A stretch of 64,000 nt of DNA, taken from the NCBI GenBank assembly GCA_964570175.1, contig CAZMXG010000007.1, positions 2,109-66,108 on the forward strand, read 5' to 3'. Below the pieces are notes generated by a model that saw nothing but the letters and a program-made list of their open reading frames with translations, was not told the origin of the DNA and ran no database searches. Below are positions 2,869-36,589 of the stretch, piece by piece. The position numbers were made by a program, and so were the translations under genes. How positions within the stretch are numbered: the first letter of the stretch is position 1; each line of letters opens with the position of its first letter. This stretch comes from an uncultured Heliomicrobium sp. Lineage in GTDB: Bacteria; Acidobacteriota; Blastocatellia; RBC074.

Positions 2869-3743
2869 AGAGAAAATTTTCCAGACCAATTTCCAGTCAG
2901 CTTTTGCTTTTTGCGACATTGGCAATCCTGTTTATCTCTTCATCTGCCGTGGCCCAGCAACGGCCCTTAATCACCGAAGATGTTGAGATCGTAAAGCCTG
3001 GCTCGGTCCGGTTCGAGTTCGGCTTTGATTTTTCGCAGGATAAAAACTTTACCTTGTCCGGATTGAATGGCGATCTGACCCGCTTTGGGGTCGTTTCCGC
3101 CACGTTTGGACTTGCTCCCAACGTCGAGTTTGAAACCGGCGGTGTGATCCAGAACTTTCTCAGCATTAACCGCCCGTACCGCCCGTCTGCCGTGCCATTG
3201 CAATTGAGCCAGGCGACAAATTCAACGCATGACTCTGGCGATTTTTACCTGGCCACAAAAATTAAGCTGCGACCTGAAACCAAACGACTGCCCGGTGTTG
3301 GTTTTCGCTTTGGTGCTGAGTTGCCAAACTCGAATCAATCGCGCGGAATTGGGGTGAATCAAATCAATTTTTTTGCGACAACACTGGTTGGCAAAAATTT
3401 TGGCAAACGAGTTCGCGTTGTTGGCAATCTGGGCTTGGGAATTTTGACCGCGCCGATTGATCGGTTTACGCAAAACGACGTCTTACTTTACGGCTTGGGA
3501 ATGAGTTATCTGTACAACGATCGGGTCACTTTGGTCGGGGAAGTCAACGGACGCTACAATACTCGTGGCCAAGCCCCGCTCGGCACTGAATCTGAAGGAT
3601 CTGCCAGATTGGGCGCTCGAATTCGCGCTGCCGGGTTGATCTGGGACATCGCCGGAATCAAAGGCATTCACAATAACAGTGCCCAAAGCGGAATCAGTTT
3701 TGGTGTCAGTTACGAAGCCAGTTTGTTTCAACCCGTAAAGTAG
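2865..3743 (+). CDS. Putative outer-membrane beta-barrel protein (signal peptide, alternating amphipathic strands, C-terminal aromatic)
   Basis: Signal peptide ...SSSAVAQQ. Gly/aromatic-rich alternating pattern. Ends ...GVSYEASLFQPVK. Translationally coupled to the upstream FGE protein. Confidence 0.4.
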   Translation: MKRKFSRPISSQLLLFATLAILFISSSAVAQQRPLITEDVEIVKPGSVRFEFGFDFSQDKNFTLSGLNGDLTRFGVVSATFGLAPNVEFETGGVIQNFLSINRPYRPSAVPLQLSQATNSTHDSGDFYLATKIKLRPETKRLPGVGFRFGAELPNSNQSRGIGVNQINFFATTLVGKNFGKRVRVVGNLGLGILTAPIDRFTQNDVLLYGLGMSYLYNDRVTLVGEVNGRYNTRGQAPLGTESEGSARLGARIRAAGLIWDIAGIKGIHNNSAQSGISFGVSYEASLFQPVK

Positions 3744-3952
3744 ACTGTACAGCATACGAACTTACGGCTATTATCCTTGTGCCTCGAAAGCGGCTGATTT
3801 TGTTTACCCCGTCAATCACTGAGCCGCCCTCACTACAGCCCCTAAAAAAGCACTCCCCGAAAGCCCCACGCCCCAAAAATCACTCAAGTTGGTGCCTACA
3901 GTTTCTGACTCCCGTCGTTTCGGCAAACACGCTTTAATTCCATCTGTCGTGT

Positions 3953-5212
3953 TTGGGAGCAAAGGCCATGACGCCTCTTCAACTTCTCACACGTTTTCTT
4001 GCGCCATTTTTTTCTTTGATCGCTTTGTGCGGCTTTCTGAGCTTTGGCTCAATTCAGGTTTCGGCTCAAACGACACGCATGCTAAGAGTCCAACAGTCCA
4101 TTGCTGCGCGCGGACAAAATCAGAGCGTTGTTGTCGAAATGGAAGCCGTCGGAAATGAAAATGCAGTGGGCTTCAGTTTGAATTTCGATGCCAGTCAGTT
4201 GCGGTATGTTTCGGCTTCGACTTTTGGCGGTTCGACCGGAGCGGCGATAAATATCAACACTTCAATGGTTGGTGTTGGCAAAGTGGGAATTGCGTTGGCA
4301 TTACCGGGTGGCCAGAAACTCGTCCTGGGCAAACAAGCCATCGCCATCATCACCTTTACCGTGTTGGCAACTGAAAATGTCTCAAACACATTTTTGAGTT
4401 TCGGGGATCAGCCGATTGCGCGCGAAGTCGTCGACACTTCCGCAAATGCAGTGGCAGCCAACTTTTCCGGAGCCACACTGACTTTCGCGCAACCAATGGC
4501 CGCCGTTTCAGCCGCCAGCTTCAGCAATGCCAAATTGTCCGGCGATTCGATTGCCACGGCTTTTGGCAATCGCTTGGCGACAAAAACGCAAGCCGCGACT
4601 TCTTTGCCGTTGCCGACTTCACTGGCTGGCTCCAGTTTGATCGTCAAAGACAGCCTGGGCACCGAACGCAATGCCCCACTCTTTTTCGTTTCTCCTACGC
4701 AAGTTAACTTTCTGATTCCAGTAGGCACAGCGACTGGCCCGGCAGCAATCATTGCCACAAATGGCGATGGCATTCTTTCAGTCACCAACACGGAAATCAC
4801 AACTGTCGCGCCATCGCTTTTTTCCGCCAGCGCCACTGGCCAAGGACTTGCCGTCGCCGTTGTGCAGCGAAGAAAGGCGAACGGCGCAATCAGTTACGAA
4901 GCAACTTCCCGTTTTGACTCAACCTTGGGCAAGCTGGTCGCAGTTCCAATTGATCTAAGCCAGCCGACAGATCAGGTCTTTTTGCTGCTTTATGGCACGG
5001 GAATCAAAAACCGCAGCAGTCTATCCAACGTGCTGGTCAAACTGGGCGGCACGAATGCGGAAGTACTTTTTGCCGGTGCCACAACAGAGTTTGCAGGTTT
5101 GGACCAGGTCAACATCCGCCTGCCGCAGACCTTAGCCGGTCGCGGCATGGTCAACATTGTGTTAACCGTTGACGGCCAATCGGCGAACTCGGTGGAGATC
5201 AGCATCAAGTAA
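3953..5212 (+). CDS. Secreted cohesin-like domain protein with Acidobacteria-type C-terminal domain (resembles TIGR03437 Soli_cterm)
   Basis: Signal peptide. N-terminal beta domain (VVVEMEAVGNENAVGFSLNFDASQLRYVSAS) is cohesin-like. C-terminal 220 aa (ATAFGNRLATKTQAATSLPLPTSLAGSSLIVKD...PLFFVSPTQVNFLIP...) is paralogous to the C-terminus of the 29465..30706 protein. Confidence 0.45.
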   Translation: MGAKAMTPLQLLTRFLAPFFSLIALCGFLSFGSIQVSAQTTRMLRVQQSIAARGQNQSVVVEMEAVGNENAVGFSLNFDASQLRYVSASTFGGSTGAAININTSMVGVGKVGIALALPGGQKLVLGKQAIAIITFTVLATENVSNTFLSFGDQPIAREVVDTSANAVAANFSGATLTFAQPMAAVSAASFSNAKLSGDSIATAFGNRLATKTQAATSLPLPTSLAGSSLIVKDSLGTERNAPLFFVSPTQVNFLIPVGTATGPAAIIATNGDGILSVTNTEITTVAPSLFSASATGQGLAVAVVQRRKANGAISYEATSRFDSTLGKLVAVPIDLSQPTDQVFLLLYGTGIKNRSSLSNVLVKLGGTNAEVLFAGATTEFAGLDQVNIRLPQTLAGRGMVNIVLTVDGQSANSVEISIK

Positions 5213-30977: not shown

Positions 30978-31922
30978 TCAATGTGTAAGCTTCCCGACAA
31001 AAGCCGTTAAATCCGCCGCAAATCGTTCTGGTTCTTCCCAGTGAGGCGCATGCCCTGTGCCGGAATAAACCAAAAGCGTTGTTCCTTTGATCGCCGTTGT
31101 CAGAACGTCTTGATCCTTCCGGGAACAAAACAAATCCTGATCGCCCCAAACAATCTGCGTCGGCAATTTGATGTGACTGAATTCCGATGAAAAATCCGTT
31201 TCCATCAATCCCGCTATCACAGAACGCCAGACACGCGCGGGAACTTTTGCACTCTCTTGCACGGCAGCATCCAGAAACCTCGCAGGGATGGGTTTATGCA
31301 AGGTGCTCTGTTGAAACTCCCGCACAAACTTGAAATCAACCGGGTCAGCCATTTTGCTGATTGTCGTATCCCACAGCTCTTTTACTCCCGCGTGGCCGTG
31401 AACCGTTTTGAACGCCCCAACCAGCAATAATCCCGATGCGCGTTCGGGATGATCCAGCACGAACCGCAGCGCAATCTGACTGCCCATCGAATGCCCGACA
31501 ATTGCCGCACGCTTCAGTTTCAGCGCGTCCATAAACGCCACCACGTCGGCTGAAAAATCGCTTGGGCGATAACCGGACGCTGGACGTTCGGAATCCCCAT
31601 GTCCACGTTGCGACAATGCGAACGCATGAATGTTTTTTGGCAAATGCGGCAGCACCAGTTCAAACGACCGCCATGAATCCGTGTATCCGTGCAGTAGGAT
31701 TACCGGAATGCCTGTCGCATCACCCTGCTCGACATATTGCAGCTTCACCCCTGTGCGAAGCGTGACGGATTTGACCGAAGGCTCCTTTCGGTCCTTGAAG
31801 GCTTTGGCTAATCGAATGCTGCCGGTTTCAGGCAACATAGGTTTCTGTTGTGCCGATACGCCAGAAACCAGCAGTAGCAAAACATAGGTAACGACAAATC
31901 TGATTTTCATAGGTTTCCTCAC
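30978..31922 (-). CDS. Secreted alpha/beta hydrolase
   Basis: Signal peptide. HGYTDSW (HGxxxS oxyanion region), nucleophile elbow GHSMGS, and a C-terminal His region. Confidence 0.7.
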   Translation of the reverse strand: MRKPMKIRFVVTYVLLLLVSGVSAQQKPMLPETGSIRLAKAFKDRKEPSVKSVTLRTGVKLQYVEQGDATGIPVILLHGYTDSWRSFELVLPHLPKNIHAFALSQRGHGDSERPASGYRPSDFSADVVAFMDALKLKRAAIVGHSMGSQIALRFVLDHPERASGLLLVGAFKTVHGHAGVKELWDTTISKMADPVDFKFVREFQQSTLHKPIPARFLDAAVQESAKVPARVWRSVIAGLMETDFSSEFSHIKLPTQIVWGDQDLFCSRKDQDVLTTAIKGTTLLVYSGTGHAPHWEEPERFAADLTAFVGKLTH

Positions 31923-32052
31923 ATACCCGTAAATTGCAGAATGCGTCCTTACTGCGTGCGGGCTTCTGCATAATCCTGTCTAACCAGATAGAAGCCGTGA
32001 TTGCTTGATCAGCAAGCACAGCTCCTGTTATTTGTGGCTCTCAAACGACCGG

Positions 32053-32619
32053 TTATGGTTTTGGCCTTGGCACTGGCCTGACCACAATCCGCTCTTTTTT
32101 CTTCAAGCCATCTTTGATGTCCTCAAAATCGGGCCGAGGTTTCGGAGTTGGAGCAGGTGCCGCTTGATTGGGCAACGGATTGAAGCTTGCCTGCTTGCGA
32201 ATCCCAATGGAAGATCGCGTTCCGTTATGAACAACCCGGACGATCAGGCTAACATCCGCCGAAACACGTGACGGGCCGCCAAACATCTTTTCGCGAGCTT
32301 CGTTCGATATGCCCAGCAAGCCAACTGAAACCGAACTGCTGTTTGGATTTGGCGTTTGCACCACTTTTCCTGTTTGCCCGTTCCCGCTCAATGAAACATT
32401 CAGTTCATACCCTTCGATTCTGGCGCCGGGTTTTAGACCCGTCAGTGACCAGCTCACCTTCAGAAAACTCGGTGGGCTTTTCGCCCCGACAACCGAAATC
32501 TCTGTCAAACTGAATTTGGTATCGAATCCCTGAGCTGATAACCCGGCGGGAAAGCTATCGGCGACCATGATTACCGCCAGCAAAACTATCGCTTTTGAAA
32601 CAAATTTCTTGTGAATCAT
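32053..32619 (-). CDS. Hypothetical secreted protein (Ig/FN3-like beta-rich, Pro/Lys-rich C-terminus)
   Basis: Start set at MIHKKFVSKAIVLLAVIMV (signal peptide). No catalytic motifs. Confidence 0.3.
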   Translation of the reverse strand: MIHKKFVSKAIVLLAVIMVADSFPAGLSAQGFDTKFSLTEISVVGAKSPPSFLKVSWSLTGLKPGARIEGYELNVSLSGNGQTGKVVQTPNPNSSSVSVGLLGISNEAREKMFGGPSRVSADVSLIVRVVHNGTRSSIGIRKQASFNPLPNQAAPAPTPKPRPDFEDIKDGLKKKERIVVRPVPRPKP

Positions 32620-32659
32620 TCTTGAATCCTCCTTCTGCCTTGTTGAATACAGCCGCCAG

Positions 32660-33754
32660 TTACTGCTTCTTCGCAATGTAATAGTTGTTGATGATGTCGT
32701 GCGGAAGCCGTTTCACTTCGACATTTGCAAATCCGGCATCTGCCAACATTTGCTGCGCCAGTTCTTCCCCCCAAGCCGCGCCCAGACCAGCGCCCCCCTG
32801 TGCCAGCGAAACCGTCATGCAGTGCAGGCAGGAAACTGTGTACGTAAACGTTCCCAGCGGATTTTCCAGGTTTTTGTGAACGTGGCTTGAACCGCCAATG
32901 TCCTGCATCAGAAACACACCGTCTTCGTTCAACGCACCGAGAATTGCTTTCAACACCTTTGCCGGATTCGCCTGATCGTGAATCGCGTCAAACGCTGTAA
33001 TCAGGTCAAACCGAAGCTTGCCGCCGATTTCCGCAACATCTTTCATTTCAAAACTGATATTGGTCAGGCACTTTTGCTCCACTTCCAGATTTGCGGCGGC
33101 GATGGCTTCTTCTGAAAAGTCGTAACCCGTGAAGCTGCTGTTAGGGAATTTCGCTGCCATTTGAATCAATGCTTTGCCGCGCCCACAACCGACATCCAGG
33201 ACTTCAATTCCGTTGCGGAGTTTTTCCGTCAACCCCGACACTAGCGGCAAAATGTGATCAAATAATCCGGAAATGACTGTTTGCGCGCTTTCTTCAGCCA
33301 TCACTTCGTGGAAGCGCGGATAGGCTGAATACGGCACGCCGCCGCCGTTGCGGAAACATTCTATGATTTGATCTTCGACGCCAGCCAGAACCGGAATGAA
33401 TTGCGACGTGACCGCCAGGTTATTCGGCGAAGCCGCGCGCGTCAGAAAGGTTGCGTGTTCGGCTGGAAGCCGATATGTCGCGGTCGCATTGTCGTATTCG
33501 ACGATTCGCCCGGTCGCCATTGCTCCCAACCATTCGCGCACGTACCGTTCCTTCAAATTGGCGGCTGCGGCAATTTCCAAGCTTGTGGCAGGCGGCAACG
33601 TGCTCATTGCATCAAACAATCCTGTGCGATGTCCGATGCTGGTCATCAACGCCAGAGCCGCGTTGTTCAGCACGCCAACCATTTGTGCGGCAAATTGTTC
33701 CGCTCTTGCTTCATTTAAAGTTGCCTTCGCAGGCAAAGTTCCTGTTTGTGACAT
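32660..33754 (-). CDS. Class I SAM-dependent methyltransferase with N-terminal winged-helix/dimerisation domain (Rv2258c-like)
   Basis: [15 protein letters not shown] is motif I. DFSEEAI and [11 protein letters not shown] are post-I motifs. A 150-aa N-terminal helical domain precedes them. RBS GGAG upstream of the ATG at 33754. Confidence 0.65.
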
Positions 33755-33838
33755 TGTTTTCTCCTTCTCAAAAAAAGCAGCACCGCACTTTTGATTTGCA
33801 GTGCTGCACGGTTGCAATTGTTTAGAAACAAGCCGTTG

Positions 33839-34270
33839 TCAGTACTGGTTGATCCGGCACTTACATTCCAAACCATCGAATCTGCCCAAGTGAACCACTT
33901 GCGTCTTGCCAGGTTTCAAATCCGAGCGCAGTCTTTTTACTGTTTCTGCGCCTGTGGTTTGATCAAAACTGATCTTCGTTCCCTTGGCGATTATCTGGTC
34001 GGACTGGTTGGTAATTGTGATCAGTTTGTTGCCCGCGCCCGTGTTGTTGACAGTGCAAACCAGATCGGCTTCTTTCGGGCTACTGGCATTTGCGGTGAAC
34101 GCACTGAAATTCAACAAGCCAGTTACAATCAACATCGCCAGAAATGATTTCGTGGCGACTCGCCAAGCTTTCACTTTGTTATTTGTCGTCATAAACTCCC
34201 TCCAAAAAATTATTTGTTTTCGTTTTGCGCCAGCGTTTGACGCGGGCCGAAACTTATTCACAAAGCGCAA
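33839..34270 (-). CDS. Small secreted hypothetical protein
   Basis: Signal peptide (KSFLAMLIVTGLLNFSAFTANA). 143 aa. Divergent from the CadC-like regulator. Confidence 0.3.
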   Translation of the reverse strand: MRFVNKFRPASNAGAKRKQIIFWREFMTTNNKVKAWRVATKSFLAMLIVTGLLNFSAFTANASSPKEADLVCTVNNTGAGNKLITITNQSDQIIAKGTKISFDQTTGAETVKRLRSDLKPGKTQVVHLGRFDGLECKCRINQY

Positions 34271-34275
34271 GGAAG

Positions 34276-34354
34276 TCTTGAAAACGGACTCAAACGATTC
34301 TCAAATCGTTCTCAAAGGGGATTTTCAAAACGACTTCAAACGATTTTCAAACTG
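34276..34354. promoter_or_regulatory. Array of direct repeats (TCAAACGATT[C/T]TCAAA / TTTTCAAAACGA-type half-sites) in the divergent intergenic region
   Basis: Sequence GAAAACGGACTCAAACGATTCTCAAATCGTTCTCAAAGGGGATTTTCAAAACGACTTCAAACGATTTTCAAACTG lies immediately upstream of the winged-helix regulator gene. Confidence 0.35.
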
Positions 34355-34357
34355 CTT

Positions 34358-36589
34358 ATGTCTTTGTCTGGCAAACACTTTTACGATTTTGACCGGTTTC
34401 GTATGGATGCGAACGAGCGCGTGCTGTTGGCCGACGGCGAGATCGTGACGCTGACGCAAAAAGCATTTGACGTGTTGATGGTTTTGGTGGAACGGCGCGG
34501 CCAGATTGTCAGCAAGGACGAACTAATGGAGTTAGTTTGGCCAGACACGTTTGTCGAAGAGGGGAATCTTGCCCAGAACATTTACACCCTTAGAAAAGTT
34601 CTGGGACAGACCAGCGACGGGCAGGATTTCATTAAAACGATTCCCAAACGAGGGTACAGGTTTGCTTTGGACGTCAGCGAACACCGTGATGTTCAGCCAG
34701 AGCTGACCTCTGAAAAGCCAACCGTTTTGAACTCGCCCTCAAAACCGCTGACAACAAATTCCGTAGTGGTTCAGTTTCCCACGGAACATCGCGGAATAGT
34801 TCATCAACCCACGCAGGAAAATTGGACCCAATCGCTAAGCCGTCACAAAATGTTGGTCGTGACGCTGGCTGTGCTTTTTGTCGGGTCGGTCGGCAGTTTG
34901 ATTTGGCTGGGAAACTCTTTTGGATGGAATCTGTTTTCGTCGAATTCCAGCACCAAACTGAATATCAGCAATTTGACGACGACTGGAAACGTCGCGTGTT
35001 CGGCGGTTTCTCCGGATGGAAAGTTTGTCGCTTATGCGCTGACCGAAACCGCTCAGCGAAGCAGTTTGTGGTTAATGCAATTGGCGACGATGAATGTTCA
35101 ACAGGTGATCGCTCCGGCCGAAATCCAATACCACGCGCTGACGTTTTCGCGCGATGGACAGTTCATTCATTACGTCGCCCGTGAAAATAATTCAACTCGC
35201 ACGCTGTTTCGAGTTTCGGTGCTTGGCGGCGCTTCAAAAAAATTGAGTGAAAATGTCCTGACCGCCATTTCGTTTTCTCCTGACGGCGAACGGCTCGCTT
35301 TCCGGCGATCATTTGACGAACGGCGCGAGGCTGTTCTTTTTGTCGCTAATGCTGACGGCAGCAATGAAAAACAGCTTGCTGCCGTCAAATATCCGAATTC
35401 GTTTGGCGATCCTGCCTGGTCGCCCGACGGAAACGTGATTGCCTGTGCCGCAGGCTATTCGGAAGGAGGCGCGAATATGGAAGTTGTCGCCGTTCGCGCA
35501 GATGACGGAGCGATCAAGCCGGCTTCGGCTCAAAGATTCCGCTGGATTGGCCAGCTTGCGTGGCTGCCGGATTCCAGCGGTTTGATGATGGTCGCCAGCC
35601 GCGATCCGGCAGAGCTTCGGCAGGTTTGGCGGCTGGATTATGCAACCGGCGAAACGCGCCGTGTGACCAATGACAACAACCATTACAACCGCTTGAGCCT
35701 TTCCGCTGACGGCAAGACGTTGGTGGTTTCGCAGCTCAAGCAGGTTACCAACATGTGGATGATCCCGCGTGAAGACGCGCAGCGTGCGAAGCAAATCACC
35801 TTCGGCGCGGGAGGCTACAGAGGCAGGCTTTCGTGGACGCCAGATGACAGAATTGTGTATGACTCCGAAGCGGCTAACGCCGCAACGATTTCCGTGATGA
35901 ATGCCGATGGCAGCCATCAGAAACAATTGCTTGGCGAACAACCCAATAAATCTTACGCTGGGCGCTCGTATGTTTCGCCAGATGGACGCTATGTTTTGTT
36001 CGCCTCCGATGTCACTGGAACACGCCACATCTGGCGCATGAACATAGATGGCAGCAATCCAGTTCAACTGACCAATGGTGATGGCGAAGACACGCCGCAT
36101 TGTTCCCAGGATTGCCGATGGGTGGTTTACACAAAACTCGAACGCAAGGGAGCAGATCGTCCCACAATTTGGCGTGTTTCCATTGATGGAGGAACGCCAT
36201 CGCAATTGACCGAAGATTTTACGATGTATCCGGCGATTTCGCCGGATGGAAAGATGATGGCTTGCGTGCGCTCAGCGCCGAACGAACCCGGACGGCTTGC
36301 CATTTACTCAGTTGAAGGCGGTGTGCCAATCAAAATTTTCCCGCGCCCGATAGATGGCACGCCGCTGATTCGCTGGACGCCCGATGGGCGATTTTTGACC
36401 TATGACGAAAATCCAATCGGTCCCGCCAAATTGTGGCTTCAATCCGTGGAGGGCGGCGAACCGAAATTGCTGACCGAATTCGTTTCGGATCGCATTTTCG
36501 GATTCGACTGGTCGCCTGATGGAAACCGATTGGCTGTCGTACGCGGCCTGTGGTCGGCCAACCTTGTCTTGATCAAAGGCTTTCAGTAA
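34358..36589 (+). CDS. CadC/OmpR-type winged-helix DNA-binding domain - TM - TolB-like beta-propeller transcriptional regulator
   Basis: N-terminal trans_reg_C-like domain (LTQKAFDVLMVLVERRGQIVSKDELMELVWPDTFVEEGNLAQNIYTLRKVL). One TM (VVTLAVLFVGSVGSLIWL). About 500 aa of repeated SPDG/WSPDG propeller blades. Confidence 0.65.
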   Translation: MSLSGKHFYDFDRFRMDANERVLLADGEIVTLTQKAFDVLMVLVERRGQIVSKDELMELVWPDTFVEEGNLAQNIYTLRKVLGQTSDGQDFIKTIPKRGYRFALDVSEHRDVQPELTSEKPTVLNSPSKPLTTNSVVVQFPTEHRGIVHQPTQENWTQSLSRHKMLVVTLAVLFVGSVGSLIWLGNSFGWNLFSSNSSTKLNISNLTTTGNVACSAVSPDGKFVAYALTETAQRSSLWLMQLATMNVQQVIAPAEIQYHALTFSRDGQFIHYVARENNSTRTLFRVSVLGGASKKLSENVLTAISFSPDGERLAFRRSFDERREAVLFVANADGSNEKQLAAVKYPNSFGDPAWSPDGNVIACAAGYSEGGANMEVVAVRADDGAIKPASAQRFRWIGQLAWLPDSSGLMMVASRDPAELRQVWRLDYATGETRRVTNDNNHYNRLSLSADGKTLVVSQLKQVTNMWMIPREDAQRAKQITFGAGGYRGRLSWTPDDRIVYDSEAANAATISVMNADGSHQKQLLGEQPNKSYAGRSYVSPDGRYVLFASDVTGTRHIWRMNIDGSNPVQLTNGDGEDTPHCSQDCRWVVYTKLERKGADRPTIWRVSIDGGTPSQLTEDFTMYPAISPDGKMMACVRSAPNEPGRLAIYSVEGGVPIKIFPRPIDGTPLIRWTPDGRFLTYDENPIGPAKLWLQSVEGGEPKLLTEFVSDRIFGFDWSPDGNRLAVVRGLWSANLVLIKGFQ

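Follow-up and report, generated by a model that had tools for sequence, protein, structure and literature searches.

Tandem 11-bp repeats as a probable operator for a ToxR-like transmembrane regulator of a Blastocatellia acidobacterium

A tandem array of seven 11-bp units (34279..34351, plus strand) lies immediately upstream of the gene for a transmembrane winged-helix (wHTH) regulator in the window, by which we mean the whole stretch of 64,000 nucleotides of acidobacterial DNA analyzed here, and it is very probably a protein-binding operator, a judgement that sums over two operator models. The model that we adopt, with moderate confidence and on the evidence of sequence comparison, gives the array a dual role, in activating the divergent small secreted-protein gene from an upstream site and in feedback on the regulator. 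Open reading frames and Pfam matches confirm the setting described in an earlier note on this DNA, in which the repeats separate the small secreted-protein gene (33839..34192, minus strand) from the regulator gene (34358..36589, plus strand).

Structure of the repeat array

The array is built from a single pentamer, T[C/G]AAA, held in register on the plus strand, with starts at 34279, 34290, 34301, 34312, 34325, 34336 and 34347 and spacings of 11, 11, 11, 13, 11 and 11 bp. The core is TGAAA at 34279 and TCAAA at the other six starts (34290 to 34347), and the unit consensus is nnGTTYTCAAA. This regularity is simpler than was first described; the four related strings then quoted are all present (CAAACGATTCTCAAA at 34291-34305, TCGTTCTCAAAGG at 34306-34318, GATTTTCAAAACGA at 34320-34333 and CAAACGATTTTCAAA at 34337-34351). 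The last TCAAA starts 11 nt before the regulator ATG at 34358, and the array ends 6 nt before it. In a position weight matrix (PWM) of the units the information content is approximately 1.8 bits per position for the TCAAA core, 0.5 for the preceding GTTY and 0-0.6 for the linker, and the array as a whole is poor in G.

The array is real and far above chance. TCAAA-N6-TCAAA has four matches in the 64-kb window, all four of them inside the array, where 0.50 are expected, and none of 100 shuffles reaches four. Tandem Repeats Finder reports a period of 11 with 5.6 copies and a period of 22 with 3.1 copies, and a PWM-pair scan of the window identified no second comparable site outside the array. 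A repeat search also reveals an internal duplication in which 34269-34305 resembles 34315-34351 (76% identity, a shift of 46 bp), so that the first half of the array and the box that precedes it recur, in diverged form, as the second half. The single 13-bp gap (34312-34325), which is kept in every one of the five clade-A loci, coincides with the junction of this 46-bp duplication, at which the box's second copy has decayed to GGGGATTTT.

The transmembrane regulator

The 743-aa product of the gene to the right of the array is assigned as a transmembrane one-component regulator from Pfam matches, hydropathy and comparison with solved domains. Its N-terminal wHTH domain (aa 28-102) matches Trans_reg_C (PF00486) with 65.8 bits against a cut-off of 26.2, there is a single hydrophobic peak at approximately aa 166-184 (mean Kyte-Doolittle value 2.37 at aa 166), and the C-terminal region matches only PD40/DPPIV_N/TolB-like beta-propeller families (88.6 bits to PD40). 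The Pfam search found no receiver domain (Response_reg) in the protein, and at its C-terminus no periplasmic sensor of the ToxR or CadC type (ToxS partner or CadC_C1). The predicted topology is of a cytoplasmic wHTH domain, one transmembrane helix and an extracytoplasmic beta-propeller sensor, and there are more than 3,500 relatives of the protein in public data.

Among solved structures the DNA-binding domain is nearest to that of ToxR (7nmb, E=7e-12; 8b4b, 1.6e-11), with CadC following (5ju7, 9e-11); response regulators score 1e-8 or weaker, with OmpR domains listed and the PhoB domain at E=3e-3. The recognition helix, L71-A-Q73-N-I-Y-T-L-R-K80, aligns as LAQNIYTLRK with the LTQAISTLRK helix of ToxR, and the base-contacting glutamine (Gln78 of ToxR) is common to both. 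The regulator had earlier been called CadC-like, which is imprecise, as the DNA-binding domain is nearest to ToxR and the CadC sites are arranged head-to-head, not as direct repeats (PMC5430869).

Inspection of the sequence shows no Shine-Dalgarno motif ahead of the regulator start codon (ATG, 34358). From this ATG onward the N-terminus (MS...K[H/R]FY) is conserved in the proteins of relatives. An upstream start, with the repeat being coding sequence, was rejected: the period of 11 is not a multiple of three, the TTG at 34278 is out of frame with the ATG 80 nt away, and the conserved N-terminus begins at the ATG. The context of the start is itself conserved as TCAAA-N4-TT-ATG-TC (34352-34360 in the window). 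Two public gene calls (P0019 and P0040) begin with 'LGSNSSQIVLKS' and 'LRSNSSQIVLKA', which is the repeat array translated in frame, and these database starts are likely to be mis-called.

Conservation of the array in related loci

Related loci were drawn from collections of genomes and metagenomes or retrieved through searches for exact proteins. An array of this kind immediately precedes the ATG in every orthologue with the same helix type, from 92% down to 48% protein identity. The orthologue at 48% identity (L051) is syntenic with the window, sharing the small-protein, methyltransferase and hydrolase genes, and retains the array. Copy number ranges from three to approximately nine units between clades, and the spacing is almost always 11; the period is 11 in the 16 loci whose helix carries glutamine (Q class), and in 12 of these 16 the last TCAAA starts 11 nt before the ATG. 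When 12 Q-class sequences are aligned on the ATG, the TCAAA columns are invariant or nearly so and the spacer columns are variable, a pattern that points to purifying selection on the cores while the linkers drift among orthologues. In the 397 kb comprising the window and the related loci, 31 of the 32 matches to TCAAA-N6-TCAAA (0.35 expected in total, an excess of approximately 90-fold) are directly upstream of regulator orthologues, and all triple arrays in this sequence sit directly upstream of regulator orthologues. We read this pattern of conservation as the signature of a functional, position-specific cis element rather than of a product of slippage.

Exact and PWM scans of the window and approximately 400-480 kb of related loci found no further arrays. 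The motif search that the earlier note had suggested for defining a regulon thus yielded no further sites in the window or in approximately 400 kb of related loci, and for this reason the regulatory system looks local.

Repeat cores and recognition-helix residues

Paralogues of the regulator with other recognition helices are associated with other repeats. The 16 loci with Gln helices (L[A/T/S]Q) have the core TCAA[A/T] with a period of 11. Eight loci with Arg helices (L005, L011, L048, L049, L057, L053, L007 and L008) have the core [C/G]TGA[T/C/A] with a period of mostly 10, and at least three phased units are present in seven of the eight, L008 having only one CTGATT; the Arg-class arrays are at 40-150 nt from an ATG that has a Shine-Dalgarno-like sequence of its own. 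The two loci with His helices (L050 and L055) have in common a third array (TCAAT, GTTCTGAG, GTTCTCT), and L018, whose IVQNISTLRK helix is the nearest to that of ToxR, has the core CTAAAAG with a period of 11.

The repeat core thus appears to covary with the residue equivalent to ToxR Gln78 (position 73 here). This covariation is supportive rather than conclusive, because the helix classes are largely monophyletic and perhaps only four or five independent changes stand behind it; that paralogous promoters diverge anyway also counts against its weight. Direct repeats one helical turn apart are the binding mode of OmpR/PhoB/ToxR-type wHTH domains, and the proposal that these repeats are operator-like, and serve the adjacent wHTH regulator, appears well founded given that they have this arrangement, that the cores are kept while the spacers drift at identities down to 48%, and that the core changes with the helix residue.

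A class-independent box and a putative divergent promoter

The array is preceded by a box, GGAAGTCTT (34271..34279, plus strand), with the family consensus G(G/A)AAGTC(C/T)T, located approximately 14 nt before the first TCAAA. The box precedes the arrays of Gln-, Arg-, His- and Val-Gln-class paralogues, and since it is constant across the helix classes we conclude that it is not read by the recognition helix. Matches to the box pattern elsewhere are mostly in coding sequence and have no comparable context.

On the minus strand the box reads AAGACTTCC and contains a -35-like hexamer, AAGACT (34279->34274), and 17 nt downstream of this is a -10-like hexamer, TAAGTT (34251..34256; minus strand, 34256->34251). 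Together these form a putative promoter, P_div, with a predicted transcription start near 34244. The geometry is shared widely: [T/C]AnnnT is present on the minus strand at an offset of 16 or 17 after GACTT in 21 of 24 box-anchored loci (as TAnnnT in 15), and in the 24 loci this pattern is absent from all other offsets from 13 to 34; the spacer sequences between box and hexamer are unalignable between clades. AAGACT matches TTGACA at three of six positions, the GAC core only. In combination, box and hexamer resemble a promoter of the sigma70 type whose -35 is weak and which is oriented towards the divergent gene. The core of the -10-like hexamer (nAnnnT) is symmetric between the strands, and we infer the direction of P_div from the T or C at the first hexamer position and from a consistent -35 partner, which the minus strand has and the plus strand does not; read on the plus strand, the clade-A hexamers (AAACTT and similar) are poor.

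The array lies immediately upstream of the -35-like hexamer of P_div, and immediately upstream of the -35 is the standard position for an activator of the OmpR/PhoB/ToxR type. Two further features bear on the assignment. The box is conserved well beyond the needs of a -35 hexamer, and TCAAA reads towards the regulator gene, an orientation that, if pho boxes are a guide, would speak for a promoter on the side of the regulator.

Several other readings of the box or the units were considered and rejected. As an ECF/sigmaE-type promoter (GGAAC..TCAAA) the box has a spacing of 14-15 nt where 18 is needed, as a sigma54 promoter (GG-N10-GC) it has 8 nt where 10 is needed, and an IHF reading misses the consensus WATCAANNNNTTR by one position. 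The box is an inverted copy of the array unit in some Q-class loci only, and this reading fails in the Arg class.

The divergent gene and its surroundings

The product of the divergent gene (33839..34192, minus strand) is a protein of 117 aa whose N-terminus resembles a signal peptide and which matches no Pfam family. The gene, 160 bp from the regulator ATG, is preceded by a strong Shine-Dalgarno sequence, GGAGGGAG (34203->34196, minus strand), and is the likely target of P_div; homologues of the protein hold the same divergent position in L001, L002, L025 and L003. Between P_div and the small gene, in the predicted 5' leader of the latter, is a near-palindrome, GCGCCA-gcgtt-TGACGC (34227..34243), which is perfect in L001 and L025 and could be a leader hairpin or the site of another factor.

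Directly 3' of the small gene, and 5' of the Shine-Dalgarno sequence of the downstream methyltransferase gene, there is an intrinsic-terminator-like hairpin (33770..33807, minus strand) with an 11-bp stem followed by U7 (-27.8 kcal/mol, z = -2.88), which is missing from the output of the promoter and terminator scanner. Its position suggests that the small gene is transcribed separately from the methyltransferase gene, the two being separate transcription units. Pfam assigns the genes beyond the small gene as an Rv2258c-like wHTH-methyltransferase and an alpha/beta hydrolase, and members of the regulator family are repeatedly found near such a pair (30978-34192, minus strand, in the window; L051, L052, L054, L057 and L058). 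In L051 and L052 the trio of methyltransferase, hydrolase and regulator, with a small protein in addition, is found in synteny with the window. Between the methyltransferase and hydrolase genes is an open reading frame (32053-32676, minus strand) for a protein of approximately 190-207 aa with a hydrophobic N-terminus; it matches no Pfam family and overlaps the end of the methyltransferase gene by 17 nt.

The divergent genes differ from class to class of the regulator paralogues. The partner in the Arg class is a conserved protein of approximately 90-110 aa, MKKRVTIISVERERVVE...CxxC...CLNSL, without a Pfam family, encoded on the minus strand in L005 (~3540-3832), L011 (~3500-3773), L048 (~4560-4822) and L049 (~4310-4639), and it may be a conserved, uncharacterized partner or target of the Arg-class regulators. 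At two Q-class loci (L026, ~3050-3786; L052, 4066-4800; minus strand) the 117-aa type of the window is replaced by a secreted protein of approximately 245 aa with a weak, sub-threshold Dirigent-like match (E=1.8e-4).

The regulator promoter and probable autoregulation

Most relatives have a separate and good sigma70-like promoter on the plus strand, TTTGCT-N17/18-TAnAAT, located 16-80 nt farther from the regulator gene than the box; these comprise the Arg-class loci, the Q-class clade at 50-55%, L050, L051 and L054. The promoter scanner reports TTGCTA-17-TAAAAT in L048 and TTAATA-17-TATAAT in L051. With a promoter in this position the regulator transcript would run through the box and the array, and the two promoters would face each other; negative autoregulation is to be expected, because an occupied array together with polymerase at the divergent promoter should block transcription of the regulator. 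In the window's clade we found no convincing regulator promoter, as the -10 is unrecognizable, the position at the proper distance from TTTGAC (34236-34241) being taken by CACAAA, and for this reason the autoregulatory half is the weaker part of the dual role. The earlier note had called the array autoregulatory, and this is plausible in that the array covers the 80 bp before the ATG and is downstream of the sigma70-like promoter of the relatives, but it would be only half of the account, as the geometry of the minus-strand box and -10-like hexamer puts the array at the position of an activator of the divergent gene.

Other candidate promoters in and around the array were rejected. The single match of the scanner within the array (TTGAAA-18-GAAAAT, minus strand, 34350->34321) reflects the resemblance of the reverse complement of the unit to TTGACA, and it is not conserved, L001 and L002 having GAAAAC. 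On the plus strand, TTGAAA (34278) and TCAAAT (34301) separated by N17 are conserved in clade A but have C in place of the essential A at -11; a leaderless mRNA with TTCAAA as its -10 would be without both A-11 and T-7; and 'nACAAT' near the box, taken as the regulator -10, has no consistent -35 and fails in clade A.

A model for the function of the array

We propose that the array serves the adjacent membrane-anchored regulator as a tandem operator, its head-to-tail units being bound by the cytoplasmic, ToxR-like wHTH domain. Up to seven monomers would bind, one for each unit (core TCAAA, 11-bp period) and roughly on one face of the DNA, an arrangement that would suit a set of proteins approaching the DNA from the membrane. 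The array abuts what would be a conserved core promoter (AAGACT, TAAGTT), weak in its -35 and directed away from the regulator. On sensing of a signal by the periplasmic beta-propeller, the bound regulator would recruit RNA polymerase and activate the divergent small secreted-protein gene, and the same occupancy, covering the 80 bp before the regulator start codon, should damp transcription of the regulator in a negative feedback.

More tentatively, and with some doubt, we raise the possibility of a one-residue specificity code, in which Gln, Arg or His at position 73 would correspond to TCAAA, CTGAT or TCTNA, each paralogue would carry a constant promoter module, and the array would be a two-way switch between face-to-face promoters, turning the divergent target on and at the same time blocking the regulator transcript. 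In this reading the array could also hold the gene of the regulator at the membrane, which would favour co-transcriptional insertion of the protein. Were all this true, operators and local targets might be predicted from nothing but sequence for thousands of uncharacterized acidobacterial transmembrane regulators.

Alternative interpretations

The array could instead be a purely autoregulatory operator or roadblock that represses (or activates) the regulator gene only, with box and hexamer forming no divergent promoter. An end of the array just 6 nt from the ATG, the 11 nt from last TCAAA to ATG in 12 of 16 Q-class loci, the good plus-strand sigma70-like promoter upstream of the array in relatives, the lack of other sites in the window and a divergent gene that is not conserved across classes would all suit this interpretation. 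We nonetheless think it unlikely, as it leaves unexplained why a class-independent box keeps a fixed distance from the first unit and why [T/C]AnnnT on the minus strand keeps one from the box (21 of 24 loci, with unalignable spacers), and as the Arg-class arrays, at 40-150 nt from the ATG, appear tied to the box and not to the start codon.

It is less probable again that the array acts through a protein other than the adjacent regulator, or through the shape of the DNA (phased bends or a UP-like element). The class-independent box shows that at least one element of this region has a reader shared by all of the paralogues, and recognition of the ToxR type leans heavily on DNA shape (PMC10629549). 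Arg-class units (CTGATT), however, are without A-tracts, such that curvature is not the conserved property and intrinsic curvature was rejected, and the covariation with the helix and the strict co-location with the gene family point to the neighbour as the binder.

An element acting in the RNA would be either an unstructured C/A/U-rich leader, serving as a translation enhancer in place of a Shine-Dalgarno sequence, or a set of sites for an RNA-binding protein, and has little probability in our view. It would fit with the ATG at 34358 having no Shine-Dalgarno sequence while the neighbouring gene has GGAGGGAG, with the G-poor array abutting the ATG in Q-class loci and being transcribed from the upstream promoter in relatives, and with a predicted structure that is weak, as an open leader would show (fold z-scores of -0.20 for the plus strand and -0.41 for the minus strand). 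Yet a period of 10-11 nt is that of the DNA helix and has no rationale in RNA, the core covaries with a residue of the DNA-recognition helix, and the Arg-class arrays are far from the ATG of genes that have their own Shine-Dalgarno-like sequences. An Rfam search of 33700-34800 (E<=10) gave no credible match, its two sub-threshold matches both being outside the array, and with the fold z-scores this led us to reject a structured RNA or riboswitch.

Neutral, minisatellite-like slippage without function, suggested by the visible 46-bp duplication and by copy numbers of three to approximately nine between clades, is effectively refuted by the pattern of conservation, with cores kept, spacers diverged and phase held across lineages with only 48-55% protein identity, and by the approximately 90-fold excess over chance. 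The array as an operator of the adjacent regulator, with the dual role set out above, is the interpretation that we compare with known systems.

Comparison with known systems

The mechanism proposed is a familiar one, of tandem binding in the style of ToxR and PhoB, and implies no new principle; it is the regulator family that is unstudied. Our literature search found no paper on the wHTH and beta-propeller architecture or on its operators, and we know of no acidobacterial regulator of this kind with a known operator, target or signal. Transmembrane transcription regulators are common in Acidobacteria (PMC10269533). The value of the locus lies in annotation and in a clean model system, as it offers a testable operator with seven clean sites and a candidate target, the small secreted protein, in a conserved neighbourhood; the correspondence of helix residue and repeat core could serve in assigning operators throughout the family, opening a large and uncharacterized group of regulators to prediction.

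CadC of E. coli, which acts on cadBA through Cad1 and Cad2, is likewise a transmembrane wHTH one-component activator of a neighbouring operon and is the second-best solved homologue. It binds two T-T-A-x-x-x-x-T sites that form a head-to-head quasi-palindrome from -144 to -112 of the cadBA promoter (PMC5430869), whereas the repeats here are a direct array, and its sensor domain is different.

The OmpR sites F1-F3 and C1-C3 of ompF and ompC are at least three contiguous tandem sites, with approximately 10 bp for each monomer, located at about -40 to -100 of a weak promoter, and OmpR belongs to the same Pfam family as the regulator. OmpR is a cytoplasmic response regulator, however, and its sites are degenerate, of graded affinity and without a constant box.

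The pho boxes of PhoB are 11-bp direct repeats that replace the -35 element. They resemble the array in having an 11-bp unit with a conserved core and a looser linker, in head-to-tail binding of wHTH domains, as proposed here, and in abutting a promoter, putative in our case, with a poor -35. They differ in their core (TGTCA, against TCAAA here) and in orientation, since the array reads in the opposite sense relative to the putative promoter; and PhoB is a soluble, phosphorylation-controlled response regulator, whereas the regulator here has no receiver domain.

The closest solved homologue is ToxR of Vibrio cholerae, a membrane-anchored one-component protein with an N-terminal wHTH domain that acts at toxT, ompU, ompT and ctxA. 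Crystal structures show ToxR monomers bound in tandem exactly 10 bp apart, with multiple sites occupied in long regulatory regions (PMC10629549), and the proposed ToxR site is TNAAA-N5-TNAAA (PMC8517210). The array core TCAAA fits TNAAA, and tandem, multi-copy binding near the -35 is common to ToxR and the model proposed here, but the period of the array is 11 bp and that of ToxR sites is 10. The ToxR sites are also degenerate and largely read by shape, in contrast to the seven regular, strongly conserved cores and the constant box of the array. ToxR Thr77 is an alanine here, and the sensor is a PD40 beta-propeller where ToxR has a periplasmic domain paired with ToxS. Finally, the host here is a Blastocatellia acidobacterium, and the array abuts the start codon of the regulator's own gene.
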